This document shows, piece by piece, positions 1,318 through 52,714 of a DNA stretch of 64,000 bases; within the stretch, counting starts at the first letter, position 1, and each line of letters begins with the position of its first letter. Origin of the DNA: a phage. Position numbers and translations under genes: made by a program. The notes below the pieces were generated by a model that ran no database searches, was not told the DNA's origin, and worked only from the letters and a program-made list of their open reading frames with translations. The stretch lies in sequence record PZ445550.1; one strand, 5' to 3'.

Positions 1318-1431
1318 GTAAGTATAGGATGGGATACTACTCAGTTGGTATCCCATTCCTGTATTTTAAAATCCCCTTTACAAATTCGATACGATTATGT
1401 ATACTATATTCATACAGTTGAGGAGAACACT

Positions 1432-4204: not shown

Positions 4205-4221
4205 CGGAGAATTATTTAAAA

Positions 4222-5598: not shown

Positions 5599-5617
5599 TA
5601 CAGGCTTTTCAGCCGAT

Positions 5618-5647
5618 AAGGAGAGCTTCGGCTCTCCTTTTTTATTG
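5618..5647 (+). terminator. Rho-independent terminator after capsid gene
   Basis: Hairpin AAGGAGAGC-TTCG-GCTCTCCTT followed by a T-run. Confidence 0.7.
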
Positions 5648-5657
5648 GGAAAAATAA

Positions 5658-6170
5658 ATGCAAATCATCACAGCTGAAGATTATAGATTATATGGTGGTT
5701 TAAAACGACCTGAGTTAGAATCTGGTGTAGAAATGATGATTACTGCTGCCAATGCATTAATTACTAGCCTTCTAGGCATGGATGATGCTGATGCTGTAGA
5801 CCAATTAATCAATACAAAACCTACACGTAGAAAATATTTTTTAAGTTCACCCTCCGCTACTTCTATTACAAAGATTACTATTAATGATAAGGAAATAGAG
5901 TCAGAGCAGTATAAATTATACTCTGATGGTGTTATACTTCTTAAATTTAATCCTCCAGAAGGTTATATGGACGTAGCGTATACACAAGGTGGATTTAATC
6001 CAATGCCTGAAGACCTTAAATTAGCAGCATGTATGCTAGTAGACCATTGGCATAAGCAGGATTATCGTCAAGCTAAAACAATTGGCGGTGAAACAATAAC
6101 TTTCAATAACACTAAGTCTGGTATACCAGAACATATTCGTACCATTATTGAAGTGTATAGGAGAGTATAA
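5658..6170 (+). CDS. Head completion / head-tail connector protein (putative)
   Basis: 170-aa ORF directly after capsid gene in conserved late order. Confidence 0.45.
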   Translation: MQIITAEDYRLYGGLKRPELESGVEMMITAANALITSLLGMDDADAVDQLINTKPTRRKYFLSSPSATSITKITINDKEIESEQYKLYSDGVILLKFNPPEGYMDVAYTQGGFNPMPEDLKLAACMLVDHWHKQDYRQAKTIGGETITFNNTKSGIPEHIRTIIEVYRRV

Positions 6171-6938
6171 ATGTCTCTTTCAGATTTAGCCAGGCAAATT
6201 ATTAAGGAACAGTTAGATTCTGCCGGACGTTCTGAAAATAATAAGAATACAGTGGTATACTCCGTGGAAACAGGATTGAAAGATCCTACTAGAGATGGTA
6301 CTATTGCTCAAGTATCATTTAAATTCTCTAAACCAGTATCCCAAGATTTACTTAATATTAGAACAGCTTCTATACTAAAAGCAGTATCTTCTAATTTAGA
6401 TCTTTCTGGAGACTTAGGTGCTTTAGAGAGCCTAATACAGGCAACCGCTGGTAAAAAATCCTCTGTAGGTAAAAAACGTTCTACAGGTAGAGTACAGGTA
6501 AACTTTGGTGATCCTAGCGATGTTGAAGATGGTTATTCAGGCGCAGTAACAGGAGCTTCTGGACGCTTTGTCTCTAATAGTAACATGAAAGTTATTCTTG
6601 AACTAGTTGCTAAGGAATATCTAATTAAGGATATGAAGAAAGCAGGGGCTCCACTAAAATTTAGAACGGGTAGATTTGCTAACTCTTTAAAAATTAAAGA
6701 TGTCATGCTTAGGGATGCCGAAACTAGTAAAGGTTCCCCAGAATTAAGTGTAACATATAACTATATGACTCGTCCTTATTCAGTATTTAATCCTGCAGTA
6801 TCTACATACAGAAGGTTATCTCTAAGACCATACCCCGGTGCTAGAAATCCTCAAAAATTAATTGGGGAGGCAATAGCAAAAGCAGCACGAGACCTGATTC
6901 ATTCCAGATATAAAATTAAGGTCAATCAAGGAACCTAG
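6171..6938 (+). CDS. Head-tail joining / tail completion protein (putative)
   Basis: 255-aa ORF, abuts the upstream gene, between capsid and tail tube genes. Confidence 0.4.
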   Translation: MSLSDLARQIIKEQLDSAGRSENNKNTVVYSVETGLKDPTRDGTIAQVSFKFSKPVSQDLLNIRTASILKAVSSNLDLSGDLGALESLIQATAGKKSSVGKKRSTGRVQVNFGDPSDVEDGYSGAVTGASGRFVSNSNMKVILELVAKEYLIKDMKKAGAPLKFRTGRFANSLKIKDVMLRDAETSKGSPELSVTYNYMTRPYSVFNPAVSTYRRLSLRPYPGARNPQKLIGEAIAKAARDLIHSRYKIKVNQGT

Positions 6939-6941
6939 TAA

Positions 6942-7427
6942 ATGGATCATAGAACAAGTATTGCACAAGCCCTGGTGGACCGAATCTCTAAACAAATGGA
7001 TGGTTCTCAACCAGATGAATATTTTAATAACCTCTATGGAAATGTTTCTCGTCAAACTTATAAATTTGAAGAGATACGAGAGTTTCCTTATGTAGCAGTT
7101 CATATAGGAACTGAAACTGGTCAATATCTTCCATCAGGTCAACAGTGGATGTTTTTAGAACTTCCAATACTGGTGTACGATAAAGAAAAAACAGATATCC
7201 AAGAGCAACTTGAAAAACTCGTAGCGGATATAAAAACCGTTATTGACACAGGTGGAAATTTAGAATATACTGTTAGTAAACCTAATGGATCGACCTTCCC
7301 ATGTGAAGCAACTGATATGGTAATTACATCAGTTAGTACAGATGAGGGTCTACTGGCCCCATACGGTTTAGCGGAAATAAATGTAACAGTGCGCTATATG
7401 CCCCCTAAACGTGCATTACGCAGATAA
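6942..7427 (+). CDS. Tail terminator protein (putative)
   Basis: 161-aa ORF immediately upstream of the tail tube gene. Confidence 0.4.
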   Translation: MDHRTSIAQALVDRISKQMDGSQPDEYFNNLYGNVSRQTYKFEEIREFPYVAVHIGTETGQYLPSGQQWMFLELPILVYDKEKTDIQEQLEKLVADIKTVIDTGGNLEYTVSKPNGSTFPCEATDMVITSVSTDEGLLAPYGLAEINVTVRYMPPKRALRR

Positions 7428-7453
7428 GTTACAGATTAGGAGAATATAAATAA

Positions 7454-8863
7454 ATGTCTTTACAACTATTACGTAATACTCGAATCTTCGTGTCTACTGT
7501 TAAGACTGGTCATACCAAAGAAAACACGCAAGAGATTCTAGTTCAGGATGATATTTCTTGGGGTCAGGACAGTAATTCCACAGATATTACTGTTAACGAA
7601 GCAGGTCCACGACCAACTCGTGGTTCAAAACGTTTCAATGACTCCTTAAATGCTGCTGAATGGAGTTTCTCAACATATATCCTCCCATATAAGGATAAAA
7701 CCACTAATAAGCAAATAGTTCCTGACTATATGTTATGGCATGCTCTTTCTAGTGGTAAAGCTCTAAACTTAGATGGTGACACTGGGGCACATAATAACGA
7801 AACTAACTTCATGGTTAACTTTAAAGATAATTCTTATCATGAGTTAGCTATGTTGCATATTTACATCCTTACTGATAAAGCATGGAGTTATATTGACTCT
7901 TGCCAGATTAATCAGGCAGAAGTAAACGTTGATATCGAGGATATTGGTCGTGTAACTTGGTCTGGTAATGGTAATCAGCTAATTCCACTGGATACTCAGC
8001 CCTTTGATCCAGATGTGGTAGGTATTGATGATGAAACTTATATGACTATTCAGAGTTCTTATATTAAGAATAAGTTAACTATCCTAAAAATTAAGGATAT
8101 GGATTCTGATAAGGCATATGACATTCCTATTACTGGCGGTACTTTTACCATTAATAACAATATCACGTACCTAACTCCAAATATTATGTCTCGTGTAAAT
8201 ATTCCAATTGGTTCATTTACGGGTGCATTTGAATTAACTGGCTCTCTAACGGCGTATCTTAATGATAAAGCTCTCGGATCTATGGATTTATATAAAGATC
8301 TGATTAAAACCCTTAAGGTAGTTAACAAGTTTGAGATTGCACTCATTCTTGGTGGTGAATATGATGATGAGCGTCCAGCAGCTGTACTAGTTGCTAAACA
8401 AGCCCACGTTAACATTCCTACTATTGAGACTGATGATGTACTTGGTACTTCAGTAGAGTTTAAGGCTATCCCTACAGATTTGGATACTGGTGATGAAGGT
8501 TATCTTGGATTTTCTAACAAGTATACAAAAACTACTGTAGCTAATCTGATTGCTACAGGAGATGGTGCTAAAACCCCACCAAAACTGGTGGAGTCAATCA
8601 CAGTTAAATCTGCTAGTGATGCTACTTCTGTAGAAAATAGTAATACTCTACAGATGTCTGTCGAAGTAACTCCATCGGATGCCACTAATAGCGCAGTAAC
8701 TTGGTCTATTTCTAGTGGTAACGCAGCTACAATTGATGCAGAATCTGGACTATTAACTGCTGATGCCTCTAAAACAGGCGCTGTTACTGTAAAAGCTGTA
8801 GCTAAAGACGGTTCTGGTGTAGAAGGTACTAAGAGCATTACAGTTACTACTTCTGGTGGCTAA
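7454..8863 (+). CDS. Major tail tube protein (pb6-like) with C-terminal Ig-like domain
   Basis: 469 aa (T5 pb6 is 464); C-terminal Big2-like segment (TVKSASDATSVENSNTLQMSVEVTPSDATNSAVTWSISSG...). Confidence 0.75.
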   Translation: MSLQLLRNTRIFVSTVKTGHTKENTQEILVQDDISWGQDSNSTDITVNEAGPRPTRGSKRFNDSLNAAEWSFSTYILPYKDKTTNKQIVPDYMLWHALSSGKALNLDGDTGAHNNETNFMVNFKDNSYHELAMLHIYILTDKAWSYIDSCQINQAEVNVDIEDIGRVTWSGNGNQLIPLDTQPFDPDVVGIDDETYMTIQSSYIKNKLTILKIKDMDSDKAYDIPITGGTFTINNNITYLTPNIMSRVNIPIGSFTGAFELTGSLTAYLNDKALGSMDLYKDLIKTLKVVNKFEIALILGGEYDDERPAAVLVAKQAHVNIPTIETDDVLGTSVEFKAIPTDLDTGDEGYLGFSNKYTKTTVANLIATGDGAKTPPKLVESITVKSASDATSVENSNTLQMSVEVTPSDATNSAVTWSISSGNAATIDAESGLLTADASKTGAVTVKAVAKDGSGVEGTKSITVTTSGG

Positions 8864-38356: not shown

Positions 38357-39124
38357 TTATTCAGTAGCCGCAGCTTTTGCATCCAGTTTAGCACGCTTAG
38401 CGGCACCATCATAGTCTTTAGCAACCAGACCACGACGAGACAGCATAGATTTAGCACCGCGCTCAGATTTACCAGTTTTCTCAGCGATTTCAGCAACAGT
38501 CATGTTAGCTAGATCCAAACCTTCTAGCAGATCTTCACGAGTTTTAGCACTTGAAGTTTCCTGTACCGGCATAGCAGCGATACGGCCTTCACGCAGCAGG
38601 CTAAGAGCTTTACCACGAATCTGCTTAATATTACGACCGAAATGTTCGGCAATAGCTTCAATAGTAGCACCAGCAACAACCTGATTTACAAAGTCGGTTT
38701 CTTCATCAGGAGTGAAGGAGCGAACAGCGGCAGCTTTTTCAGTCGGCTTAACAGATGCAGTCATTTCCAGACTCAGAATTTTACCCTGTACCTGCTTAGC
38801 ACCAAATTGACCACCAGCTACAGCAGCAGCAATTTCAGCGTAAGTATACTGACCAGCATGAGCGTTCAGGAAATCAACCAGTTCAGCTTCCTGCTCAGGA
38901 GTCCACGGGGATTTCTGTACTTCGTTAGCTTTCTGTACTTCAAAACCTTCTTTACGCAGTTTGGAGCCAACAGAGCGTGCAGTAACATCTTTACCCGTTT
39001 CAGCAGCCAGTTCAGCAGCGATAGCAGCTACTTGTTCTTGAGAGATTACAGTAACACCCAGAGCAGTGGCTTTTGCTTTCAGAGACTCGGTTACACCTTC
39101 TACGTTCCAGTTCAGTTTAGACAT
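38357..39124 (-). CDS. Putative DNA-binding protein with three internal repeats (T5 D5-like)
   Basis: 255 aa, Ala/Lys-rich; three repeats of a ...AEIA...G...K...GK.LSL... module; strongly biased codon usage. Confidence 0.45.
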   Translation of the reverse strand: MSKLNWNVEGVTESLKAKATALGVTVISQEQVAAIAAELAAETGKDVTARSVGSKLRKEGFEVQKANEVQKSPWTPEQEAELVDFLNAHAGQYTYAEIAAAVAGGQFGAKQVQGKILSLEMTASVKPTEKAAAVRSFTPDEETDFVNQVVAGATIEAIAEHFGRNIKQIRGKALSLLREGRIAAMPVQETSSAKTREDLLEGLDLANMTVAEIAEKTGKSERGAKSMLSRRGLVAKDYDGAAKRAKLDAKAAATE

Positions 39125-39899
39125 TATTATTTTTCTCCAATAGTTCTTTAATCGACAGGATTTCTATCCCATTCGTTTCGGCTTTCTTATAAGATGAGGA
39201 GGAACGCTTCGATTCATCCTCACAGATTAGGTATTTGACGTCTTTGGTAACAGATTTCTTAACCGTATACCCTAGACTTTCTAAATAGTTTGTTGCATCC
39301 GTTCTGTTTGCAAAATCTTGCAAAGATCCGGTAATACATACTGTGATTCCATTTGGTTGGGCTACTAGACCATCAGTAATAATGGTCTCAGCTTTAGTGC
39401 CTCTAATACCAGTTGAGAATTTCCACGGTAATTCGATTACATCCTTGCCTTGTGGGGAATTTAGCCAGGCTTTGTAGTTTTCTCCAGCTTTGCCATCAGC
39501 TCTCACATCTTGAAAGCTAGTGCAATTTTGGGATAATTTCTTTGCTGCAACCTCTCCAATTAGAGGAATTCCTAAAGAACCGAGAACTGAACCAAAGTCA
39601 ATGTCTCCGCGAACTTTAGTATTTAATTCGCTAATTAACTTAGCGGCAACCTTGCTACCCACTGCTCTAACCAAATCTTCTTCGGTTAGGTAAAATAGTT
39701 CTGAAATCTTCGTCAGCTCCAGCTTCTCAATAGTTTTTGGGCCAAAGCCCTTTAACTTCATTTTTGTACAGAAGTTCTCAATTAACTTACTTGATTGCGC
39801 TGGACAGTTGGACTTATTCCTACAGAATAATTGTCCATTGACAAGATCTAGTTTAGAACCACAAGAGGGACATTGTGTTGGAATTTCGATTTTCATCAA
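39117..39899 (-). CDS. ligB: NAD-dependent DNA ligase, C-terminal subunit (Zn finger, HhH, BRCT)
   Basis: CPSCGSKL...CRNKSNCPAQ zinc finger, helix-hairpin-helix region, BRCT-like ITVCITGSL...YLICED. Confidence 0.85.
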   Translation of the reverse strand: MMKIEIPTQCPSCGSKLDLVNGQLFCRNKSNCPAQSSKLIENFCTKMKLKGFGPKTIEKLELTKISELFYLTEEDLVRAVGSKVAAKLISELNTKVRGDIDFGSVLGSLGIPLIGEVAAKKLSQNCTSFQDVRADGKAGENYKAWLNSPQGKDVIELPWKFSTGIRGTKAETIITDGLVAQPNGITVCITGSLQDFANRTDATNYLESLGYTVKKSVTKDVKYLICEDESKRSSSSYKKAETNGIEILSIKELLEKNNNV

Positions 39900-39926
39900 A
39901 TTTCTTCCTTATCAATTTATATAAAT

Positions 39927-39955
39927 ATTATAGCAAGTATTTAAGCATTTAGCAA
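39927..39955 (-). promoter_or_regulatory. Early promoter in the ligA-ligB spacer
   Basis: Minus strand reads TTGCTA, 17-bp spacer, TATAAT. Confidence 0.55.
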
Positions 39956-40098
39956 CTACAATTTTAACTAACTTTGCTTACCCTCGCCATAACTTTCTAT
40001 CCCTCAACTGAATGATAATAGTATATACCTAAGCGGCGAAAATGTCAATAACCACTTTATAATTCCGATATGGTAGATGGGTAGCAAAGGGTTGTGAA

Positions 40099-41070
40099 TT
40101 AATCGTATACTCGCTCTACTATACATGGGATTACACCACCAGCACGAATCACTCTAATCTGGCAACCAATCTCTAAATCAAGAGAGTTAATATAATCAAC
40201 GTTATTAAGAGTTGCTTTAATAATTGTAGCATCATCAATAATTACTGGTTCGAAATAACCAACTGGAGTTACTTTACCAGAAGCCCCTACTTGCCATTCA
40301 ACTTTAGTAAGAGTTGTAATCTCACCTTCTTCGTCCTCTTTAATAGCAAATGCTCCGCGTGGGAATTTATTAGTCCATCCCTCACGGAAGAATTTATTAT
40401 TATCATTAATACGAACAACTTTACCGTCTGTTGGAATCCATTTAAAAAAGGACCGCACATTAACAACTGTTAAAAAGTTTTCATTTTCTAGCCAAAGCAT
40501 ATCTTTTAAATATGCTTCTGTAATACCTACAGATTCGGAAGAGCACTGAATACCGTAAGCAACAAAAATTAAACCACCTTCCCCTATACGTTGTACGAAA
40601 TCATCACTATCTTTAAGATTAATAGCACCAGAGGCAAAGTTACGTTTATTTTCTACTTCTTTTGTAATTAGAACTTCACCAGTGATTTGGGTTGGTACTT
40701 TTTGAGAAATCTTTTTAGGTATGTTCAGCAATCTTACGTTGCTTGTGACATCATTTCCTAAAATACCGTTACCACGGGTTAGTGCTTGAACAAACTCACC
40801 ATCAATATATAGTAGAGAAATTGCACACCCATCCAGTTTATCTGTTTCTACTTGTCCTAGTGGATTGAATGGTGGTTTGTCTCCACGATTATAGTAAACT
40901 TTCTGCAAAGAATACATACGATATAGATGTGGAATATCACCCTTAGGACCAATCTCTTCTTCCAATGGGAAGCGTTTTACTAGGCAATCATACTCTTCAT
41001 CCGAGATGAGAGACATACCCTGATAATATGCTTCTTGACAACGTTTGATAAATTCTCTTATATTAGTCAT
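40099..41070 (-). CDS. ligA: NAD-dependent DNA ligase, N-terminal subunit (adenylation plus OB fold)
   Basis: KxDG adenylation motif (ETDKLDGCAISLLY); ORF ends where full-length LigA would continue into the zinc finger. Confidence 0.85.
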   Translation of the reverse strand: MTNIREFIKRCQEAYYQGMSLISDEEYDCLVKRFPLEEEIGPKGDIPHLYRMYSLQKVYYNRGDKPPFNPLGQVETDKLDGCAISLLYIDGEFVQALTRGNGILGNDVTSNVRLLNIPKKISQKVPTQITGEVLITKEVENKRNFASGAINLKDSDDFVQRIGEGGLIFVAYGIQCSSESVGITEAYLKDMLWLENENFLTVVNVRSFFKWIPTDGKVVRINDNNKFFREGWTNKFPRGAFAIKEDEEGEITTLTKVEWQVGASGKVTPVGYFEPVIIDDATIIKATLNNVDYINSLDLEIGCQIRVIRAGGVIPCIVERVYD

Positions 41071-43896: not shown

Positions 43897-46738
43897 CTAA
43901 CTCTGCCATTGCTTCATCATGCATATGTTTCTCCTCATCGGTCATAAACTTATAAGGAATTGGCATACACTCGATTTTACAATAGGTTCTGTACCAGTCT
44001 ATAATATTCTCCGTGTTCATATCCTTACCAATACCCATCATACCAAGATACATTCTCGCATATTTTGGGTTAGCACTCTGACCTGTTTTAAGAAAGAAAT
44101 CTTTTTTCTTACCTTTCAGAGCTTCTATGAAGGGTTTGATAGTGACATTTGAACACTTCTTAATATCTTCCCAAAACATCTCGTGCATTTTATGAAAGAA
44201 TGCAGCTCGATCATTTGGTTTATCTTTGATATACTGCTCAACATGCTCTACTGTTACGTCTTTAATAGACTCAAGATGGTAGTAGCGAACAAGGAGTAGT
44301 TTAGCTTCATATGCATCCGCATGGCGTGGAGCACAGTAATCAGGGGTTGAGTGCAGGATAGCTTTAATTCGCTCTTCTGTATATTCTTTACCCGCACCTT
44401 CAATAGTTCCCCAGCTTTCACTGAAAATATCAATAGTTGCTCCCTGATCTAGCAGATAATAACGTAAAGTACTGGTATAATTCCTAGATTCAAGCTCCCT
44501 ACGACGTGCGTATAATTGTTGGGCTAATTCTAACCAACCTTCATCAATATTATACTGTTCAGAACCTGCTGAGAATCCACTAGTGGATTTATCTATAAAA
44601 TAATAGATATTCTGAGCACCACGGTCGCGCCTAATTGCTTGAAAACGCATGTTTGGTGCTTGGTTACTAGTTCTAGTAATAACGAATACGTTATCAAAAT
44701 AATTAAAGTCAACCCCACTCGTTACTGATGGACTACATAATAAACAATCAATCTGTTGATCAATTAGCTCATTAGTTGTGTAATCCAGAATACGTCTAAT
44801 ATCCACATCAGACGTAGAGTTTGAGTGGATTTCCTTAACTAACGCACCAGTATTACGACGCAGTGCCATACCTTTTTCGTTAAGTTCATCAGGCCCACAA
44901 TCAGATACTAGAATTGATTTCTCACCCATCTCTAAAGATGTTTGAAGTGCAACCCAAATACTGGATTCATCGGGAAACTCATACGCATGAGCCTTTGATA
45001 GCATTTTACGGTGATGGTTATAAAATGCTACTGGTTTATCAAAATCAATAAGAGAACCATAAGCTTCAATCGTCTCAGCACTAATATCGCCATCCGATAA
45101 TATTACAGTTTTAGCTGTCATGAGAATATCACGAAGAACCTGAATACACTCACGGCGTTGTTTAACAACTGGAGCGAACAGCAGATCATTCATTACAGCG
45201 TCGCATTCATCAATAAAAATGGTGTCTATTTGACCAATGAAACTCTTAAATTTGTGCAAAGAATGGATAGTTGTAGACATACGATCAATAGCGCCGCGCT
45301 TAAAATTAAGCATATCAACTGATTTATCATACTGTCCCGCACTAAACTTTTTGGCATTTGAGGATACAAGTGCTCTAGTATTTGTAACTGCCAAAAAATT
45401 TCCTGGAAGAACGCCAGCATCAAGCCATTTAGTTACTGCCGTAGTTTTACCCGTACCAAGACTTGCCTTAACAAATGTTATATGATTTTTTGGAGGCACA
45501 ATGTTAATCTTCAGATATGGGACTTCTGGGGGAGAATCAGTATCTAGACGTTTTAATGGTACACCTTTTAGATTTGGTGGAATCTCACGTTTGGAATTGT
45601 TCACAAACGCTTTAAGAGCTTGCTTACGACCATTATTAAAATAATCTTGAATATTACGACTGTTATCTTTTGTTGCAATATATTCGGATAAAGCAGGTTT
45701 AATCTCACGTTCTAACCATGCAAAATCAACACCATCCTCTAGTGCTCTGTGATAAAGCTTTGGTATAATACGTAGATACACCCCATCCTCAGCTTCTTCT
45801 AATTCGCTGATGGTTTCTTCTACTTTATCAGATGCGATCTTTTTACCTTTAATTTGGTCAAGTAAAGAATAGAACTCTTCCTTAAACTCCCCTCTAGTTG
45901 TTTCATAGTCAACTAGATTATTAGGCAGATTTATTTTCGAACCTTTAACATACACTAGACGTGGTTTATTCTCCGCTTTAAACGGATCAACTATACCATC
46001 ATTAAATAAAGGATCAGCAAAATAGTGAAGCTGTACAGAAGAGTAATAAGCTAAGTCGGCAATATCAAAGCCATACTTTTGTTTACTACTGTCATTGATA
46101 GATGTAAATAAGAACTTTAATTGCCCTTGTGTTACCTTAACATTAGATTCTAGTATTAAGTGCATTCGGATACCTGGTTTTAGTCCAGCCGAAGACGATG
46201 CATGAGCAATAAACCCTGCATCAAGAGGAAACATATCCTCACTAATACTATTCAACATCTTAATAATATGCCGCGCCATACCAACAAGATTAAACTTGTC
46301 ATAGCCACCAGTATCTATAATACCATCCACATCCATAGCGACTATATGGCTAGGGTTGGAAACATTAAAGTTACCTCGGATACGACGAACATTATCTTTT
46401 GGAGCTAAACATTTACCACGAATAGCTACAATATGCGGATCCCTTGTGAGACGACGCATAATAGGCAACATTTCAGCAAGATTCTGTGGGTCAAGTTCTT
46501 CAAGTACATCAAATTTGAAGGGCATGGAAGCTGGTTTACCTTCTGGATGCTCTTTAGAGAATCTCTTTGCAAAGGTATAATCTTCCGCTTTGATCTCTTT
46601 CCAGATACCTGTGGCTTTATCTCTGGAAAATCCTGCATGACCTTGTAGGATTGAGAACACAACAGTACTCCTATGTTGGTTATTCGGATATTTTTCTCTA
46701 GGACTATTCAGAAAGAATAGAACAACTATTACTACCAT
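43871..46738 (-). CDS. Large SF2-type ATPase/helicase, putative replication origin-binding protein
   Basis: Walker A SLGTGKTT, Walker B IFIDECD, helicase C motifs; N-terminal start uncertain. Confidence 0.6.
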   Translation of the reverse strand: MVVIVVLFFLNSPREKYPNNQHRSTVVFSILQGHAGFSRDKATGIWKEIKAEDYTFAKRFSKEHPEGKPASMPFKFDVLEELDPQNLAEMLPIMRRLTRDPHIVAIRGKCLAPKDNVRRIRGNFNVSNPSHIVAMDVDGIIDTGGYDKFNLVGMARHIIKMLNSISEDMFPLDAGFIAHASSSAGLKPGIRMHLILESNVKVTQGQLKFLFTSINDSSKQKYGFDIADLAYYSSVQLHYFADPLFNDGIVDPFKAENKPRLVYVKGSKINLPNNLVDYETTRGEFKEEFYSLLDQIKGKKIASDKVEETISELEEAEDGVYLRIIPKLYHRALEDGVDFAWLEREIKPALSEYIATKDNSRNIQDYFNNGRKQALKAFVNNSKREIPPNLKGVPLKRLDTDSPPEVPYLKINIVPPKNHITFVKASLGTGKTTAVTKWLDAGVLPGNFLAVTNTRALVSSNAKKFSAGQYDKSVDMLNFKRGAIDRMSTTIHSLHKFKSFIGQIDTIFIDECDAVMNDLLFAPVVKQRRECIQVLRDILMTAKTVILSDGDISAETIEAYGSLIDFDKPVAFYNHHRKMLSKAHAYEFPDESSIWVALQTSLEMGEKSILVSDCGPDELNEKGMALRRNTGALVKEIHSNSTSDVDIRRILDYTTNELIDQQIDCLLCSPSVTSGVDFNYFDNVFVITRTSNQAPNMRFQAIRRDRGAQNIYYFIDKSTSGFSAGSEQYNIDEGWLELAQQLYARRRELESRNYTSTLRYYLLDQGATIDIFSESWGTIEGAGKEYTEERIKAILHSTPDYCAPRHADAYEAKLLLVRYYHLESIKDVTVEHVEQYIKDKPNDRAAFFHKMHEMFWEDIKKCSNVTIKPFIEALKGKKKDFFLKTGQSANPKYARMYLGMMGIGKDMNTENIIDWYRTYCKIECMPIPYKFMTDEEKHMHDEAMAELGARNDSEE

Positions 46739-47158
46739 CTATACAAAACATTAATTATCATCAAGCAGTATGAATAAGTTATCATACCTCAGTGCTACAC
46801 TCTCTTAACTCTTATCCAGACCAGAACCTAGGTCATTGGCCGCTAAGCCGATTCTGATTGCCCTCACTATCCTATTGGTAGGTGGCTACTGGACGTGTCA
46901 CCATTCGCTGCTCTTTTCGTTCGCACCCCCATATAAAGCTCTGCCTATATAACGAGCTAAATATGCACGGTTTGGATTTACCTTTCCGAATTCAGGGTAT
47001 GCAGATCACTTAATTGATAATTAACTAATGTAGTATAAACACTAGTAATAGTTAAAACAACCCTTAATGGGGCAGCCTAACTGTTCCGTATCGCGGATTG
47101 TAAACAAGAAAAATTAGCAAAATCAATTTTTACTAATGTCTCTCACTTCAATATAAAT

Positions 47159-47187
47159 ATTATATCAAGATTTTGAGCATCGTGCAA
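47159..47187 (-). promoter_or_regulatory. Early promoter with about 400-nt leader
   Basis: Minus strand reads TTGCAC, 17-bp spacer, TATAAT. Confidence 0.5.
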
Positions 47188-47227
47188 CAAAAATTTTAAA
47201 GATGGTGCTATCAGTGTCTTTGAGCAC

Positions 47228-47256
47228 AGTGAAAACCGAGTCATTTTGACTCGGTA
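47228..47256 (-). terminator. Rho-independent terminator ending the Sir2 operon
   Basis: Minus-strand hairpin ACCGAGTCA-AAA-TGACTCGGT followed by TTTTCAC. Confidence 0.6.
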
Positions 47257-47278
47257 ATCAGTATTGGGCTAAGGAAAA

Positions 47279-47677
47279 TCAATTATCATTCAGACCTGGG
47301 ATGTAAATCCCAATGCGATTTAATTGATCTTTAGCTTCTTCAAGAATATCTTCGGTGTATTCCCAAATATCATCTTCTACTTGCAAAAGATAATGGGATT
47401 CTCCAGTTTCTGGGTCACGCGTAATAGCTAAACCACGTGGATGGAATACAGAGAAATTAAGGGCAACAATCAACCCCATACCTGATAATTCATTCCAGTC
47501 GGCTTCCCACCCATCCATCTCATCTTCATCTACAAAGATTCCAGTACTGGAATCTGTTATATCCATAAAGGGAAATACTACACTAACTTTCTCAGCTCCA
47601 AGCCAGCGTGCGAGCAATCCTTCAGCACGCTCCACTAAACTAGGATCGATCTGACGCCAATATACTTGTTCCATCAT
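47279..47677 (-). CDS. Hypothetical protein, paralog A
   Basis: 132 aa; shares GMGL(I/V)(V/F)ALN and C-terminal G(I/Y)(Y/Q)IPGL motifs with the adjacent ORF. Confidence 0.5.
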   Translation of the reverse strand: MMEQVYWRQIDPSLVERAEGLLARWLGAEKVSVVFPFMDITDSSTGIFVDEDEMDGWEADWNELSGMGLIVALNFSVFHPRGLAITRDPETGESHYLLQVEDDIWEYTEDILEEAKDQLNRIGIYIPGLNDN

Positions 47678-47683
47678 GCCTCC

Positions 47684-48112
47684 TTAGGCAGTTAAACCCG
47701 GAATTTGATAACCAAAACGGCGAAGTTTTTGGATACCCTCATTTACTTCTTCTGGTGAATAAGACCAACCATACTGTTCATTAACCTGAAAACCAGGAGA
47801 TTCACTAGTCTTATAGTTAATTACAATTCGATGCTTAACAGGCATAAATAGTTTATAGTTTAATGCAAAGACTAACCCCATTTCATCTAACTCTTTCCAG
47901 CCAATAATCTCCTCCACACCATCCTCTAGTTGTACTACTAGTCCCATGCATGAAGTTTCTTCTATATCATCCTTAAATGCAAAAGAAATATCATTATTTT
48001 CACACCAAACCTTTAAGGAGTTAATAGCTTCATTATACAAGTTATTAGGAAGAGTTCGCCAAAAATTGACCAGTACCGGATTAGTTTCCTTAAAAAATAC
48101 ATTATTAAACAT
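47684..48112 (-). CDS. Hypothetical protein, paralog B
   Basis: 142 aa; tandem paralog of 47279-47677. Confidence 0.5.
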   Translation of the reverse strand: MFNNVFFKETNPVLVNFWRTLPNNLYNEAINSLKVWCENNDISFAFKDDIEETSCMGLVVQLEDGVEEIIGWKELDEMGLVFALNYKLFMPVKHRIVINYKTSESPGFQVNEQYGWSYSPEEVNEGIQKLRRFGYQIPGLTA

Positions 48113-48114
48113 AC

Positions 48115-48621
48115 TTATACCTTAAATTGTTGTAATGATTTACACATCTCAAGCTCTGGACTAAACTCCAGCATATAGCGAGCAGCCATTAGATCTTGAA
48201 GATTTATACCAGTCTTACCATTGACTATAACTGTAGGATACTGATACATCATAGCGCCAGCGTCATCCAATACACACCAGTGCTTAAGTTTGTGTTTTTC
48301 TACAAACCTAAGTACAGAATTACCCCTAGATAATCCACCACCAGTAAAATCCGTTGTACCTAAAAAACGATCGATAAGACCTAATCCGGTCATAATCCGA
48401 ACGTTCTCCATCTCATTTTTAACAGAAAACCATGAAGATACCCCAACAATCATTATTGAAGAGGGACGAATAAAATCCTGAAAAGCCTTGAGAAGCGGTT
48501 TAAAAACCCAATCACCCCCGAAGAAGATCTTTTCATCGTCAGGTGCATGGTGGTGAGAGATGCTAGAATTGAGCACCCCATCAATGTCTAGAAAAATAAT
48601 CGGAGTATTACTTATTTCCAT
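48115..48621 (-). CDS. HAD-like hydrolase/phosphatase (putative)
   Basis: N-terminal IIFLDIDGVLNS matches HAD motif I (DxDG[TV]). Confidence 0.5.
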   Translation of the reverse strand: MEISNTPIIFLDIDGVLNSSISHHHAPDDEKIFFGGDWVFKPLLKAFQDFIRPSSIMIVGVSSWFSVKNEMENVRIMTGLGLIDRFLGTTDFTGGGLSRGNSVLRFVEKHKLKHWCVLDDAGAMMYQYPTVIVNGKTGINLQDLMAARYMLEFSPELEMCKSLQQFKV

Positions 48622-48823
48622 TTTTGTTCCTTTCTAAGAACTTATCATACTCAACCGTATCAGTATATATGACACCATAGTCATCAGATTTATAATCCAT
48701 TTCCCATAGTTCACAGCGATAACACCAACTACCATCCGCCCATACAAATATATCATCAGGGTGTGTATACACAGATTTAACTATGGACATATTTGTTTTC
48801 CCCCCTCTCCGGAGGATAACCAT
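48608..48823 (-). CDS. Hypothetical small protein (WCYR motif)
   Basis: Shares DIF...G.WCYR motif with 48781-48966. Confidence 0.35.
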   Translation of the reverse strand: MVILRRGGKTNMSIVKSVYTHPDDIFVWADGSWCYRCELWEMDYKSDDYGVIYTDTVEYDKFLERNKNGNK

Positions 48824-48966
48824 ATATCCTCCGTAGTATAGATAATTTTATATGTATTGCCCAATCTTTCTTTTACACTAGCAAATCTATAGGCAAACCT
48901 ATAACACCAAATACCAGATTCGGTTATAAAAATATCCCATTCATTATTTATTGCTTCCTGGCACAT
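48781..48966 (-). CDS. Hypothetical small protein (WCYR motif)
   Basis: 61-aa ORF, paralogous motif to 48608-48823. Confidence 0.35.
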   Translation of the reverse strand: MCQEAINNEWDIFITESGIWCYRFAYRFASVKERLGNTYKIIYTTEDIWLSSGEGGKQICP

Positions 48967-49762
48967 AAGGTCTATCCTCTAAATGAGCTTCCACACGAGC
49001 AATAAAATCAGGGTCACTGAAAGCATCCACCGCACCTTTACTCCAGTAAGGGACACCACGTTCTTCCAACTGGTACATCTCACTACGAGTCATACCTTGA
49101 TAGCCTGGCTCTGCCGCTAGGGCACTATCATAGTAGTTAACTACCATTAATTTGGCAGCAGTCAAATTAAGAACAGGAAATAATTCCCAATAGAAGTTAA
49201 TTACTTGGTTAGAGCAACCAACCACAATGATCATATCTTGATTGGTAATACCATCAAAAACATTGTACATTTCTGCATATGCTGGAGCATGCTCCCCAAA
49301 GAAGATTACATTAGGTTTAACCCATTTATAATCATCTGGGTCAATAGAATTGTACCCTACATTAATAATCCGTTTATTGCTACTATTGTAGCTATCAGCT
49401 ACAACAACCTCTTTTAAATATCCATGAATGTGCAGAATGTCACTATGTGGAACGCCAGCACGCTCAATAAGGTCATCAACGTTGGTAGTAAGGTTTACTA
49501 CTTGATTTGGATACCGTTTATACCACTCACCAATACGAAGGTGGGCAAGATTAGGTTCAACAGTTTCTAGTTCTTCACGGCGTTTATTATAGAACTCATG
49601 AGTTTTGTGGTAGCAATCTCCTAAAAAGGTATGAATATTGCATACTTCTTCAATATTAAACTCGTCCCACATCGCTTTACCAGTACTGGAGTCAGTACGA
49701 AATGCGCGTACGCCGCTTTCAACACTTAAACCTGCACCACTAATAATAATTAGCCTACGCAT
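48944..49762 (-). CDS. Sir2-family protein (NAD-dependent deacylase / ADP-ribosyltransferase-like)
   Basis: GAGLSVESGVRAFR (Sir2 GAGIS...SGIP.FR), TTNVDDL (TQNID-like), HIHG catalytic His; no CxxC zinc ribbon. Confidence 0.6.
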   Translation of the reverse strand: MRRLIIISGAGLSVESGVRAFRTDSSTGKAMWDEFNIEEVCNIHTFLGDCYHKTHEFYNKRREELETVEPNLAHLRIGEWYKRYPNQVVNLTTNVDDLIERAGVPHSDILHIHGYLKEVVVADSYNSSNKRIINVGYNSIDPDDYKWVKPNVIFFGEHAPAYAEMYNVFDGITNQDMIIVVGCSNQVINFYWELFPVLNLTAAKLMVVNYYDSALAAEPGYQGMTRSEMYQLEERGVPYWSKGAVDAFSDPDFIARVEAHLEDRPYVPGSNK

Positions 49763-49956
49763 TATACTACCCCCCGCTTAAATCCCTCGATAATATCTCG
49801 GAGTAAAATTGCTTCTTCAGGACGTACCCTTTCTTGTTTAATAAGCATGTCTAATCCAGCAATACAAGCAGATACTCCAGCATTATATCCAGAGTTCCAT
49901 TGCTCTATAAGCATATTTTCTAGATTACTTTTTAGATTCTGATTCAAGAAGTCCAT
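49762..49956 (-). CDS. Hypothetical small protein
   Basis: 64-aa ORF translationally coupled to neighbours. Confidence 0.35.
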   Translation of the reverse strand: MDFLNQNLKSNLENMLIEQWNSGYNAGVSACIAGLDMLIKQERVRPEEAILLRDIIEGFKRGVV

Positions 49957-50149
49957 ACAGCTTATCCTCTAATTCCATAATACGATTTTCATAAGAAGCA
50001 CGCAACTTTTCAATTGCTAACGCGCGAATAGTAACTTCATTAGCATTAATAGCTAGCTGGGCCAGGTCTTCCGTTTCCATACGTCCATTGTAAATTAAGC
50101 GATATTTAAGATGTTTTACATTTTTAGCCATTATTAAACTCCACTGCAA
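49925..50149 (-). CDS. Hypothetical small protein
   Basis: 74-aa ORF. Confidence 0.35.
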   Translation of the reverse strand: MQWSLIMAKNVKHLKYRLIYNGRMETEDLAQLAINANEVTIRALAIEKLRASYENRIMELEDKLYGLLESESKK

Positions 50150-50504
50150 CTGTTTCTAGATCTTCGTCAAACAAATTAGAATATATATCTTTAAGATATT
50201 GTTTAATATCTTTAGTAATATCTTCGTATCCCTCGGGACTACGTTGGTATACTTTTAGTACTCTATTATAGACAAATTCAAGAGTATATTCTACCTCATC
50301 TTCATCCTCGTCAAACAAGCAATTTGAGCTATATGGTGATACATCTAGATTTGTTTCTACCCAATCACCAATAATGGTGGAGTATGCAACACCCTCTATT
50401 TGAGAGTAATCCCCTGTAGCCGCAAAAATAGCTTCCTGAATGTTTTCAACGCCAAGATGAAAACCGCCACATGTAGACTCAATTATATATGGTTTTAATT
50501 TCAT
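50124..50504 (-). CDS. Hypothetical acidic protein
   Basis: 126 aa, strongly acidic (FDEDEDEVEY, SNLFDEDLE). Confidence 0.4.
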   Translation of the reverse strand: MKLKPYIIESTCGGFHLGVENIQEAIFAATGDYSQIEGVAYSTIIGDWVETNLDVSPYSSNCLFDEDEDEVEYTLEFVYNRVLKVYQRSPEGYEDITKDIKQYLKDIYSNLFDEDLETVAVEFNNG

Positions 50505-50740
50505 TCCTTAACCCTATAGATTGTTTCTGTAGAAATACTACCAGCTTTCTCGATATAGTTAATTATTACACAGCCAAACTTCTTACGAGTATAACGAATT
50601 CTAAAATGTTTAGCCTTACCTTTCATGACCGAACGTAGTACTCTACGTTCATCAAAGTATCCGAGCCAGTCGAGAGCCTTACGTTCTTCACTAGGCTCTC
50701 CAAGATGAGAAACATCTACCTTCGGAAGTAATTCGCTCAT
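50501..50740 (-). CDS. Hypothetical small protein (first gene of operon)
   Basis: 79-aa ORF just downstream of a P_N25-like promoter and leader. Confidence 0.4.
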   Translation of the reverse strand: MSELLPKVDVSHLGEPSEERKALDWLGYFDERRVLRSVMKGKAKHFRIRYTRKKFGCVIINYIEKAGSISTETIYRVKE

Positions 50741-50768
50741 ATCTTTCTCCTCTCAAATTTATAGATCT

Positions 50769-50797
50769 ATTATACATAAATTTTTGGCTGAAAGCAA
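50769..50797 (-). promoter_or_regulatory. Strong early promoter, T5 P_N25-like, driving the Sir2 operon
   Basis: Minus strand: TTTATTTGCTTTCAG...TATAATAGATCTATAAATTTGAGAGGAG; TTGCTT, 17-bp spacer, TATAAT. Confidence 0.65.
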
Positions 50798-50833
50798 ATA
50801 AAATAAAAGCCGGGTTGCTAGTCGACCCGGCTG
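50797..50833 (-). terminator. Rho-independent terminator after nrdD
   Basis: Minus-strand hairpin AGCCGGGT-loop-ACCCGGCT followed by TTTTATTTTATTT. Confidence 0.6.
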
Positions 50834-50839
50834 ATTAAC

Positions 50840-52714
50840 TTATTTAGCTCGAATATCCTGATGTTTCACCCTACCCATAACCTCATGCTGTTTACCTGGG
50901 TTAAATGGACGAGCACCTGGATTTCCAAGGTATCCACAAACTCGGCGAGTTACTTCAAGAGTTTCAGGATCATGATTGCCACAAATCGGACACTTAAATC
51001 CATCTTCAGAAGCTATTGTCTCGCCTAAGAATCCACATTTACCGCAAGAATCCACAGGGGTATTAATACCAAAATAGTGAACTTTACTTGCAGCATAATT
51101 AATAACCCATTCTAAGGCATCAGGAAATCGTTTCATGTCTGGTAATTCCACGTAGGAAATACACCCACCAGATGCAATTGGAGTAAAATTAGACTCATAG
51201 TCAAACTTCACATTAGGAGCAACTTTACGCTCTACATCAAGATGATGAGAGTTAGTATAATATCCTTTGGCTAAAATATCTTCATGCTCCGGGAAATATT
51301 GACGATCTAGACGACAGAAACGGTCACACAAAGATTCAGATGGTGTAGCATACAGACTATAACCTAACTGGGTTTCTTCTTTCCTCTGATCAACCCTATC
51401 CCGCATATACTGCAATACACGTTGGACAAACTTGATACATGTTTCAGACATCGTATCAACATCTTTACCAAACATGAACTGTAACATTTCATGACAGCCA
51501 ATATACCCTAGAGATACAGAAGCACGATTGTAGAAATGATCGAATACATATTCATCAGGCTCTAAACGTAATCCGAAGGCTCCTGACATATAGAGAATAG
51601 GCGCGGCTTTGGCTTGAATGTATTTTAAGCGATCAACTCTCCACTCCAATGCTTTTAATGCAGTATCCACACGCAGCTCAAGTAGATCAAAGAATAGGTC
51701 GATATTTCCTTCAGCTTCGATAGCAATTCTAGGTAAGTTTACAGAAACAACACCTAAGTTATTACGACCGGCAGTTTCACCATCTTCTGTAGCAGCTAGG
51801 AATGAGCGACATCCCATAGAAACTTTGTAGTCTCCAGTAACCTCTACAACTTTATCATAGCTAATATAATCAGGGTACATACGTTCAGCAGTACACTTCA
51901 TAGCTAACTTCTTGATGTCATAATTAACATCTCCAGGTTTCATATTAACACCGTCTCTAAGTACAAATACTAGCTTAGGAAATATTGCAGTACGTTTATT
52001 AATACCCAAGCCATCCATACGTACTTTCAGTATTGCTTTCTGTACTAAACGTGCTTCCCAAGAAGTTCCCAGACCAAAACCAAAAGTAATAAATGGACTC
52101 TGACCATTAGAGTTAAACATCGTATTGATTTCATACTCTAGACCCTGACAAGCATCATAGACTTCTTTTTCAGTCATTTCAGTAGCCATTACAGATGCTT
52201 TGGCTTCATCCTTAGTCCAACGCTTTGCAAACGCATGGTTTTTGTCATAGGATTTACGTACATAAGGAGCAAGAACTTCATCAAGACGATCTACAGAAGT
52301 ACCACCGTACTGATAGGAACTAACCTGAGTAATAATCTGGGCTGTAATAGCTGCTGCAGTAGTAATAGAGTTTGGTGTACTAATTTCAGCATTACCAACT
52401 TTCATACCATTCTTTAGCATATCTTCCAGAGCTACTAGACAACAGTTAGTCATACCTAAAGCAGCGTAATCAGCATCATGAAAGTGAATATCACCAATCA
52501 TATGAGCATTTCGAATCTGAATTGGCATTTCTTCTAAAATCAGATATTTACTCAATTCCCCTGCAAGCATATCCCTTTGTGTAGGGAAACGCTCAGAGGG
52601 TTTATTCGCATTATTAAAGAGAAGCTCTTCGTCAGCAGAACCCTCAATAATTTCTTTGCAGTTTCTAATCAAGGACTGCATTTCCTTGTATTTTAGTTCA
52701 TCATTGCGATTCAT
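50840..52714 (-). CDS. nrdD: Anaerobic ribonucleoside-triphosphate reductase (class III)
   Basis: Glycyl-radical motif TRRVCGYLG near the C-terminus; Cys cluster CGKCG...CPICG. Confidence 0.9.
   Translation of the reverse strand: MNRNDELKYKEMQSLIRNCKEIIEGSADEELLFNNANKPSERFPTQRDMLAGELSKYLILEEMPIQIRNAHMIGDIHFHDADYAALGMTNCCLVALEDMLKNGMKVGNAEISTPNSITTAAAITAQIITQVSSYQYGGTSVDRLDEVLAPYVRKSYDKNHAFAKRWTKDEAKASVMATEMTEKEVYDACQGLEYEINTMFNSNGQSPFITFGFGLGTSWEARLVQKAILKVRMDGLGINKRTAIFPKLVFVLRDGVNMKPGDVNYDIKKLAMKCTAERMYPDYISYDKVVEVTGDYKVSMGCRSFLAATEDGETAGRNNLGVVSVNLPRIAIEAEGNIDLFFDLLELRVDTALKALEWRVDRLKYIQAKAAPILYMSGAFGLRLEPDEYVFDHFYNRASVSLGYIGCHEMLQFMFGKDVDTMSETCIKFVQRVLQYMRDRVDQRKEETQLGYSLYATPSESLCDRFCRLDRQYFPEHEDILAKGYYTNSHHLDVERKVAPNVKFDYESNFTPIASGGCISYVELPDMKRFPDALEWVINYAASKVHYFGINTPVDSCGKCGFLGETIASEDGFKCPICGNHDPETLEVTRRVCGYLGNPGARPFNPGKQHEVMGRVKHQDIRAK

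Follow-up and report, generated by a model that had tools for sequence, protein, structure and literature searches.

A run of ten phage genes that includes a Sir2-family gene and a HAD phosphatase gene was found to be an annotated T5-like early operon, the orthologue of T5.100-T5.107, and is not new. We tentatively propose that its most likely job is the NAD+-dependent clean-up of phosphates left by host nuclease cuts in tRNA or other RNA. The window, meaning the whole 64,000-nucleotide stretch that was analysed (PZ445550.1), matches Escherichia phage KookSpook with 100% identity.

A known T5-like early operon

The operon contains ten minus-strand ORFs (47279-50740) between a P_N25-like promoter and a hairpin terminator, and it is located between nrdD and the replication genes (Table 1). 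For every ORF, PHROGs contains a matching family of phage proteins (E 1e-20 to 1e-119). The genes are tightly packed, with overlaps of 1-32 nt at seven of the nine junctions and gaps of 2 and 6 nt at the remaining two. The original prediction had described such a set of co-oriented ORFs under one promoter, and the promoter lies exactly where it was placed. It aligns nearly base for base with the annotated promoter upstream of T5.100, and also aligns with the upstream region of SuperGirl. The match to the P_N25 core is almost base for base as well. A generic promoter scan did not report this promoter because its -35 hexamer fits at only three of six positions. The terminator predicted at the operon end was recovered as a hairpin with a folding z-score of -4.67 (none of 200 shuffled sequences folds as well). 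Both this terminator and the nrdD terminator (z -4.39) have annotated T5 terminators at the orthologous sites. The nrdD terminator ends the preceding transcript a short distance before the promoter, so that the operon is transcribed as a unit of its own.

Table 1. Genes and transcription signals of the operon
Feature	Coordinates	Strand	Description
nrdD terminator	50799..50832	-	AGCCGGGU...ACCCGGCU then UUUUAUUUU; upstream boundary of the operon
Promoter	50769..50797	-	sigma-70 early, P_N25 type; TTGCTT (50797-50792), 17-nt spacer, TATAAT (50774-50769)
Gene 1	50501..50740	-	79 aa, basic, pI 9.7, phrog_7953; absent in T5, found in some relatives
Gene 2	50124..50504	-	126 aa, strongly acidic, phrog_11748; T5.100 orthologue
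Gene 3	49925..50131	-	68 aa, ATG start, phrog_5236; T5.101 orthologue
Gene 4	49762..49956	-	64 aa, phrog_5827; absent in T5; stop overlaps Sir2 start
Gene 5	48944..49762	-	272 aa, Sir2-family protein; T5.102 orthologue
Gene 6	48781..48966	-	61 aa, phrog_5116; T5.103 orthologue; unannotated in KookSpook record
Gene 7	48608..48790	-	60 aa (71 aa from upstream ATG), phrog_5116, paralog of gene 6; T5.104 orthologue
Gene 8	48115..48621	-	168 aa, stand-alone HAD phosphatase, "Swiss-army-knife" family (HAD_SAK_2); T5.105 orthologue
Gene 9	47684..48112	-	142 aa, two DUF7415 repeats (Pfam E 8.4e-31); T5.106 orthologue
Gene 10	47279..47677	-	132 aa, acidic, pI 4.05, two DUF7415 repeats; T5.107 orthologue
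Operon terminator	47231..47255	-	intrinsic; 9-bp stem ACCGAGUCA/UGACUCGGU, AAA loop, UUUUC

The Sir2-like protein of T5 has been annotated since 2004. The T5 operon (AY543070, 55786-58927) shares the site between nrdD and the origin-binding protein gene, the promoter and the terminator with the operon studied here, and the two align over 88% of the query with 84.5% nucleotide identity. Common to both phages is the gene order acidic, small, Sir2, two small paralogs, HAD and two DUF7415. Two small genes of this phage have no counterpart in T5, namely gene 1 (79 aa) and gene 4 (64 aa); SuperGirl has a 64-aa ORF in the position of gene 4, directly upstream of its Sir2. The neighbourhood has also been described previously. 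Iyer, Burroughs and Aravind (2022) reported a third type of neighbourhood, with a sirtuin and a "Swiss-army-knife" (SAK) HAD, in T5-like Escherichia phage SP15, and predicted KptA-like RNA 2'-phosphate removal for it. The SP15 operon is the same neighbourhood (85% nucleotide identity), and the pairing that defines the third type, a phage-clade sirtuin with a SAK-type HAD in SP15-like phages, was found here. While Iyer et al. (2022) highlight only Sir2 and HAD, the present comparison shows that the DUF7415 and phrog_5116 genes also recur among relatives and that some Demerecviridae lack the HAD. The operon can therefore no longer be presented as unexplored, as it had been in the original prediction. 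We found no experiments on T5.102 in the literature.

The list of proteins given earlier was right for the Sir2, HAD and acidic 126-aa proteins, but its "eight other" proteins would bring the sum to eleven; the actual number of others is seven. The acidic protein, gene 2, has a pI of 4.05 (26 D+E vs 8 K+R), and its family is seen again in two rearranged operons (L014 and L020). Genes 3 and 7 likely start at ATG 50131 (68 aa) and ATG 48790 (60 aa, behind GGAGAGGGGGG), respectively, and both starts agree with those annotated in KookSpook and T5. The two predicted pairs of small paralogs were both recovered. Genes 9 and 10 are 33% identical (E 2e-15), and each has two repeats of DUF7415 (Pfam PF24187; 106 and 93 bits vs a cut-off of 27). 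Gene 10 gave a confident structure model, yet its fold has no match among solved structures. Gene 7, taken from its upstream ATG (48608-48823), and gene 6 (48781-48966) both match phrog_5116, with a BLASTP match of only 13 residues between them. A phrog_5116 gene likewise follows Sir2 in L020 and L021.

The Sir2 and HAD proteins

The HMM and fold comparisons that had been suggested as checks gave significant matches for both enzymes. Gene 5 matches Pfam SIR2 (PF02146; E 1.2e-24) with 87.7 bits vs a cut-off of 24, over 178 of 180 profile positions. The motifs GAGLSVESGVRAFR and HIHG are present, and the sirtuin motifs are GAGxS, SGxRxFR, FYxxRR, TxNxD, the catalytic His113, FGE and GxS. In alignments of 28 phage homologues and CobB, the NAD-binding and catalytic motifs (GAGxS, xFR, TxNxD, catalytic His, FGE, GxS) are invariant. 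The class III Tyr-x-x-Arg motif, F57-Y58-x-x-R61-R62, is also invariant and aligns to FYNARR in CobB. CobB and SIRT5 use this type of motif to bind an anionic group; therefore, Tyr58-x-x-Arg61 could hold phosphate. Gene 5 falls in a phage Sir2 clade (48-91% identity), and no cysteine in the whole clade aligns to the four-cysteine zinc site of CobB. The same loss has been reported for Vibrio phage Sir2 proteins.

The AlphaFold model of gene 5 has a pLDDT of 90, and its top Foldseek match is E. coli CobB (1s5p; E 7.6e-18; TM-score 0.71 normalised to the query and 0.85 to the target). CobB, Sir2Af1 and SIRT5 come closest in sequence and fold, and protein deacylases account for all of the 50 best structural matches. 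Gene 5 shares the fold, the NAD-binding and catalytic residues and YxxR with CobB and SIRT5, but it is about 24% identical, lacks the zinc-binding cysteines and has an extra insertion at 210-235. Neither NCBIfam CobB equivalog cut-off is reached (100 bits vs 243; 88 vs 320). Judged by its sequence and its model, gene 5 is a CobB/SIRT5-like class III sirtuin without the zinc-ribbon cysteines.

The original prediction had compared this protein to the NAD-consuming Sir2 effectors of bacterial defence systems. That analogy was not borne out by the fold matches, and the PADLOC defence models (those for ThsA, DSR, Sir2-HerA and pAgo-Sir2 among them) gave no family for gene 5 at E<=0.01. With the defence Sir2 NADases (ThsA, DSR1/2, Sir2-HerA, short pAgo-Sir2), gene 5 has the superfamily and the use of NAD+ in common. 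In contrast to them, it is phage-encoded rather than host-encoded and is a single-domain protein without an HMM match or a defence-type partner or sensor (SLOG, HerA, pAgo or a long C-terminal domain). Small phage proteins and the HAD surround it.

HAD_SAK_2 is a HAD family of RNA-repair proteins. Gene 8 matches it (Pfam PF18143) with E 2.2e-20, at 73.9 bits vs a cut-off of 27.5 and over 138 of 139 profile positions. The DIDGV sequence named earlier is present, and the catalytic motifs are D12-x-D14-G-V-L-N, S62-S63-W, R99 and D119-D120. All four (DxD, S/T, K/R, DD) are invariant in a 15-sequence alignment that extends down to 29% identity. The group of Iyer, Burroughs and Aravind counts the family among phage RNA-end phosphatases.

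Neighbourhoods in related phages

Gene order and content of the operon differ among relatives. The HAD is absent from the Klebsiella and Serratia relatives, and DUF7415 is absent from the KKP_3711 type; Sir2 is the sole constant gene across the Demerecviridae variants, a new detail. In rearranged operons in which the HAD has moved upstream, HAD and Sir2 are still one to three genes apart, which argues for selection on their linkage. In three related phages, a candidate structured RNA of ~1 kb takes the place of the DUF7415 genes. A T4-like phage has DUF7415 between nrdD and nrdG, with no Sir2 within the 8-kb region examined.

Outside this family, the Sir2 of Vequintavirus phage naswa shares 58% identity with gene 5, and its gene forms a run with those for RNA_lig_T4_1 and cREC_REC, the latter a domain that processes cyclic phosphates. 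The same run occurs in a metagenomic contig (L016), and a P-loop kinase and a calcineurin-like phosphoesterase are divergently transcribed beside it. This V5-like cluster of RNA ligase 1, cREC and Sir2 resembles the present operon in having phosphate-processing neighbours, but the HAD stands here in place of the phosphoesterases. Sir2 was also found with DNA ligase and MazG as neighbours and no RNA ligase. HAD homologues adjoin td and nrdA.1 in Aeromonas phage phiAS5. In two ~150-kb phages (L018 and L019), a Prs-like/NAPRTase-like gene pair is beside HAD_SAK_2, and L018 has an Rnl1 gene ~5 kb from the HAD; in a third ~150-kb phage (L017), the pair is divergent from the Sir2 operon. The pair resembles NARP1 (Adps and Namat), a phage NAD+ reconstitution pathway. 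The adjacency of the HAD to this putative NARP1-like pair, assigned by domain content only, is a new detail. Neither the window nor the rest of KookSpook has an annotated pair of this kind.

Possible function of the operon

The operon structure, the domain identities, the intact catalytic residues and the gene linkage in related phages are direct results; we infer on which substrate and by which chemistry the enzymes would work, what biological role the operon may have and whether the small proteins contribute. [quoted passage not shown] The HAD would then take off a leftover terminal RNA phosphate, or it may dephosphorylate the ADP-ribose phosphate by-product. Sealing would need a host ligase because the phage lacks its own RNA ligase. 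KptA/Tpt1 also works in RNA repair, with NAD+-dependent removal of the 2'-phosphate as ADP-ribose cyclic phosphate. However, it has an ADP-ribosyltransferase fold unrelated to the Rossmann-type sirtuin fold of gene 5, and the likeness would be in the predicted working only.

The runs in naswa and L016, where a Sir2 of the phage clade follows RNA ligase and cREC, point to RNA repair, as does the HAD_SAK_2 partner with its intact catalytic motifs. The recurring enzyme neighbours of Sir2 (HAD, cREC, metallophosphoesterase) are predicted processors of phosphates or cyclic phosphates. None of them is an esterase or macro domain, which would be required for the O-acyl-ADP-ribose made in deacylation, and this may favour phosphate chemistry. 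The prediction published for the SP15-type neighbourhood also counts in favour, as does the Tyr58-x-x-Arg61 motif with its possible hold on a phosphate. On the other side, the RNA ligase, cREC and kinase of naswa have no homologue in the complete KookSpook genome (tblastn, E<=1) and none is annotated, which argues against self-contained RNA repair. To our knowledge, no sirtuin has a demonstrated activity on phosphate. There is also no fixed partner, given the relatives that lack the HAD or DUF7415. Both proteins have other neighbours elsewhere as well: td/nrdA.1 or the NARP1-like pair for the HAD, and DNA ligase/MazG without RNA ligase for Sir2.

The full deacylase signature, with protein deacylases as all of the best matches to the model, further speaks against RNA repair. 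Another possible, though unlikely, explanation is that Sir2 is an ordinary NAD+-dependent lysine deacylase (a CobB-like deacetylase or desuccinylase) that reprograms host or phage proteins early, with the HAD and the small proteins acting independently. Its nearest relatives (CobB, Sir2Af1, SIRT5) and the invariant catalytic residues and YxxR, which in SIRT5/CobB serves succinyl or malonyl groups, agree with this. One paper, in which T5 is named, has also suggested a deacylase role for the Sir2 proteins of Vibrio phages. However, the host already has CobB, the equivalog scores are far under the cut-offs, and the zinc-ribbon cysteines are lost clade-wide. Deacylation also does not explain why RNA ligase, cREC, HAD and phosphoesterases are repeatedly linked to Sir2. 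A further, improbable reading is that the operon is a co-transcribed mosaic of auxiliary early genes in a nucleotide-metabolism region and no functional unit; against it stands the closeness of HAD and Sir2, one to three genes apart even after rearrangement. In such a mosaic, the HAD would act as a nucleotidase or as a phosphatase of NAD metabolites, with Sir2 and each of the small proteins serving roles of their own. Such a mosaic would suit the location between nrdD and replication genes, the variable gene content, the HAD beside td/nrdA.1 or the Prs-like/NAPRTase-like pair, and DUF7415 between nrdD and nrdG without a nearby Sir2.

The host NAD takeover proposed originally fared poorly. Sir2 domains are described as able to hydrolyse NAD+, the NAD-binding residues of gene 5 are intact, and NAD-rebuilding genes are near Sir2 or HAD in some phages. 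Gene 5 could thus be an NADase or a destroyer of NAD-derived signals that takes over host NAD or blunts Thoeris, DSR or Sir2-HerA. We consider this very improbable: no defence Sir2 was found by model or among the top 50 fold matches, and the phage's own DNA ligase is NAD-dependent. Phages answer NAD depletion by rebuilding NAD+ rather than by consuming it, and a neighbouring NARP1-like pair fits the recycling of Sir2 by-products better than depletion. Least probable of all is a macromolecular ADP-ribosyltransferase acting on a host protein or nucleic acid. Some sirtuins do ADP-ribosylate, and Iyer et al. (2022) regard it as what a minority of the viral sirtuins do, namely the ones paired with macro domains or HerA. 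The operon has neither partner, and the same authors put this Sir2 clade in the RNA-repair group instead.

RNA-end clean-up would also bear on phage defence. T5-like phages have about 25 tRNA genes, and T5 tRNAs are described as neutralising tRNA-cleaving defences, both of which favour the proposed clean-up. Counter-defence is possible in this broader sense, as the repair of RNA cut by host nucleases, a role that has already been suggested in print for the neighbourhood.

Identity and signals of the operon

Over positions 47200-50850, the window and Escherichia phage KookSpook (PP925842.1) were 100% identical; the KookSpook record is reversed relative to the window (window position = 108012 - record position). 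The identity to T5, SP15, slur09, FFH_1, and several hundred further T5-like phages was 84-86%, and 447 records matched the region in total. The ten ORFs have T5.100-T5.107 as their counterparts, and in T5 both the operon promoter and its terminator are already annotated, as is T5.102, under the name "putative Sir2-like protein". The original prediction of ten tightly packed minus-strand ORFs was borne out, as all ten are present, each has a PHROG family match, and overlaps occur at 7 of the 9 junctions. Its count of ten stood, but its itemized list of proteins sums to eleven. The start codons of two ORFs are better set at internal ATGs. Both proposed pairs of paralogs are real (a DUF7415 pair, T5.106 and T5.107, and a phrog_5116 pair), and the 126-aa protein described as strongly acidic has a pI of 4.05.

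The promoter described as P_N25-like (TTGCTT-N17-TATAAT) can be aligned both to the promoter annotated in T5 and to the P_N25 core sequence. The proposed terminator was found to be a hairpin with a fold z of -4.67. Both signals were overlooked by generic scans on technical grounds. The nrdD terminator (fold z -4.4), which is distinct from that of the operon, lies upstream of the operon promoter. Since the operon has its own promoter preceded by this separate terminator, it is an autonomous unit. A search for hidden RNA families in window 46500-51500 found none.

Downstream, a second promoter is followed by a relatively GC-rich leader of ~430 nt and then by the origin-binding-protein gene. This leader is almost identical in T5 and SuperGirl. 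As a structured RNA, it gave a fold z of -2.3, a negligible covariation term (-0.19), and no Rfam match. In the KookSpook annotation, a gap separates Sir2 from the following gene because the T5.103 orthologue is missing. T5-like sequence was also seen in "Campylobacter phage C13" (MG065692.1), which is 97.5% identical to the window phage across the whole operon, and in "Listeria phage LM 4-11-1" (OR847565.1). These two records look wrongly labeled for host or contaminated.

Coordinates of features in the window and in comparison loci (L-numbers)
Feature	Locus	Position	Strand	Remarks
Operon promoter	window	50797-50769
Sir2 gene (T5.102)	window	48944-49762	-	compared with L009
Sir2 allele	L009	4001-4852
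T5.103 orthologue	window	48781-48966	-	61 aa; phrog_5116, E 1.4e-20
HAD gene (T5.105)	window	48115-48621	-
Operon terminator hairpin	window	47231-47255	-
Leader	window	46739-47165	-
NAD-dependent DNA ligase	window	39117-41070	-	split, annotated as two ORFs, as in T5
Single-repeat DUF7415 gene	L003, Klebsiella phage vB_KpnM_Lion_ER11 (T4-like)	3980-4213		77 aa; between nrdD and nrdG
Prs-like/NAPRTase-like pair	L017, ~150-kb phage	1-2941		divergent from Sir2 operon
Prs-like/NAPRTase-like pair and HAD_SAK_2 gene	L018, ~150-kb phage	5001-8519		HAD_SAK_2 one gene upstream
Prs-like/NAPRTase-like pair and HAD_SAK_2 gene	L019, ~150-kb phage	5001-8569		HAD_SAK_2 one gene upstream
Candidate structured RNA	L014, metagenomic T5-like contig	5920-7420
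Candidate structured RNA	L021, metagenomic T5-like contig	6789-8252
Candidate structured RNA	L022, Enterobacter phage KKP_3711 (PP579741.1)	3997-5269		~88973-90245 in record

The Sir2 and HAD proteins

The Sir2-family call of the original prediction was upheld by Pfam SIR2 (E 1.2e-24). When 28 phage homologues were aligned with CobB, the motifs GAGxS, SGxRxFR, TxNxD, His113-Gly, PxVxFFGE, and GxS were invariant, as was the class III sirtuin motif F-Y-x-x-R-R. In this alignment, the phage Sir2 has no counterparts of the zinc-ribbon cysteines of CobB, and the protein scores far under the CobB equivalog thresholds. AlphaFold modeled the protein with confidence (pLDDT 90), and the top fold matches of the model are E. 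coli CobB, Sir2Af1, and SIRT5. A defense-type Sir2 was rejected, as there was no match to the PADLOC defense models and no defense Sir2 among the fold matches. Overall, the protein is a divergent and probably active CobB/SIRT5-like sirtuin, not a defense-type NADase.

Two highly different Sir2 alleles occur in T5-like phages, one with at least 80% and the other with only ~50% identity to the window Sir2. The HAD beside either allele is 85-94% identical throughout. Sir2 of V5-like myoviruses (58-60%) is nearer to the window Sir2 than the Epseptimavirus allele is. This pattern of identities suggests that different phage families have exchanged Sir2 genes in a mosaic fashion.

The HAD call was likewise supported, with HAD_SAK_2 matching over the full profile (E 2.2e-20). 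None of the four HAD motifs varies, even at 29% identity, and the homologues are single-domain phage proteins in every case. Searching the PDB by sequence with the HAD and DUF7415 proteins gave no match. In KookSpook and many T5-like records, the HAD gene is labeled "Sir2 NAD-dependent deacetylase" because phrog_18062 carries a Sir2 label but matches the C-terminal half of HAD (E 7.9e-54); it matches the true Sir2 only weakly (E 1.4e-5). By these profile matches, the label is a propagating mis-annotation.

Gene neighbors in related phages

The Vequintavirus phage naswa has RNA_lig_T4_1, cREC_REC, and SIR2 genes in one run, and its Sir2 is 58% identical to the window protein; genes for a calcineurin-like phosphoesterase and an AAA_33 kinase are divergent from the run. 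The same arrangement was found on the metagenomic contig L016. In rearranged T5-like contigs and KKP_3711, HAD is relocated upstream of Sir2, still 1-3 genes away. Sir2 is still followed by a phrog_5116 gene in L020 and L021. Klebsiella phage vB_Kpn13-P3 and Serratia phage Slocum retain Sir2 and DUF7415 without HAD, so HAD was rejected as an obligate Sir2 partner. DUF7415 was rejected as well, being absent from the KKP_3711-type operons (KKP_3711, L014, L021) and present in regions of T4-like phages where no Sir2 was detected (the nrdD-nrdG interval of Klebsiella phage vB_KpnM_Lion_ER11, and Aeromonas phage 65.2). Each operon variant examined has HAD, DUF7415, or both. Since some variants lack HAD and others lack DUF7415, Sir2 is the sole constant gene. 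The DUF7415 genes of T5-like phages also lie downstream of nrdD, and because of this position in both T4-like and T5-like phages, DUF7415 may be tied to the anaerobic ribonucleotide reductase rather than to Sir2.

Judging by domain content, the Prs-like/NAPRTase-like pairs found in three ~150-kb phages would be of the NARP1 type. According to the NARP1 preprint, such pairs are the signature of this pathway, in which ADP-ribose and nicotinamide are converted back to NAD+ through an intermediate that decays to an ADP-ribose cyclic phosphate. The proximity of the SAK HAD to genes for rebuilding NAD+ goes unmentioned in the preprint text searched ("phosphatase" and "sirtuin" had zero occurrences).

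In two metagenomic T5-like contigs and KKP_3711, the DUF7415 genes are replaced by a ~1.0-1.3 kb stretch with its own sigma-70-like promoter and no ORF of more than 90 aa. It is flanked by the Sir2 operon terminator on one side and the origin-binding-protein gene on the other. RNAalifold predicted 239 base pairs, of which 91 show compensatory change on both sides with pairing kept, compared to 6-14 when the partners were slid; 92% of cells were paired, compared to 36-44% in the slid controls. The stretch is absent from the window, has no Rfam match, and gave no further copies in IMG/VR or the JGI metagenomes with two different invariant blocks searched per collection. This candidate structured RNA is a lead rather than a result, as its structure was derived from the same three sequences.

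Possible roles of the operon

Iyer, Burroughs, and Aravind described a distinct clade of phage sirtuins with three kinds of neighborhood (Viruses 2022, PMC9503650). They proposed that these sirtuins remove RNA 2'-phosphates like KptA; on their proposal, the enzymes associated with them would either resolve cyclic phosphates or act on the product, an ADP-ribose cyclic phosphate. The SAK HAD also stands in a list of phage RNA-end phosphatases from the same group. In an earlier paper, which names T5, phage Sir2 proteins were suggested to be deacetylases. The ten genes thus correspond to a conserved T5 operon that had been annotated before, and both the pairing of Sir2 with HAD and the likely role have been published. 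Our literature search found no experimental work on T5.102 and no T5 locus tags of the operon.

KookSpook has 25 tRNA genes. Genes for an RNA ligase, a cREC, or a polynucleotide-kinase-like protein are absent from its annotation, and a six-frame search with the naswa proteins found no homologues of the naswa ligase, cREC, or kinase. Homologues of Rnl1 were found in only 14 Salmonella phage records, compared to ~270 T5-like Salmonella phages. The candidate ORFs tested for NARP3 (PnuC/NadR) in KookSpook had no Pfam match, and T5 is nowhere named in the NARP3 paper.

Of the roles considered, the published one, NAD+-dependent processing of the phosphates of damaged RNA or of the ADP-ribose derivatives that arise from it, is the best supported, and we hold it tentatively, as somewhat short of probable. 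It is favored because the recurrent Sir2 neighbors act on phosphates and cyclic phosphates and include no esterases or macro domains, because a sister Sir2 clade lies in a textbook heal-and-seal cluster, and because T5 is known to take part in conflicts over tRNA. It is disfavored because the phage has no ligase for RNA and because the deacylase signature is wholly intact. The main rival is a plain protein deacylase, which we consider rather unlikely. We know of no biochemical precedent among sirtuins for 2'-phosphate removal, which also counts against the RNA role.

An unlinked mosaic of auxiliary genes ranks after the deacylase and is improbable. The original prediction, takeover of host NAD metabolism or a counter to NAD-based defenses, was weakened and is now very unlikely: the phage DNA ligase is NAD-dependent, and therefore replication needs NAD+; the Sir2 is unlike defense Sir2 proteins; and in some related phages Sir2 or HAD lies near an NAD-rebuilding gene pair. 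An ADP-ribosyltransferase role for Sir2 is highly improbable.

In its most novel form, the RNA-processing proposal would have the phage sirtuin spend NAD+ to remove the 2'-phosphate from damaged RNA, as a functional analogue of Tpt1/KptA with an unrelated fold and as the first enzyme of the sirtuin fold with this activity. The ADP-ribose phosphate by-product would be returned by HAD towards the rebuilding of NAD+, and the DUF7415 and phrog_5116 proteins would serve as substrate adaptors. Taken together, these steps would give T5-like phages a compact means of countering host defenses that cleave tRNA, with sealing left to a host ligase; this combined scheme we consider doubtful.

T5-like phages serve both as models and in therapy, and the operon is kept in ~400 sequenced T5-like genomes. 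Neither the RNA-repair nor the deacylase reading makes it a new object, and the finding is a well-defined, experimentally tractable biochemical question. If the RNA-repair prediction is true, it would mean new chemistry for the sirtuin fold and an extra layer of resistance against tRNA-cleaving defenses, beside the phage tRNA genes. If Sir2 is a plain deacylase, the phage would be rewriting host protein acylation.
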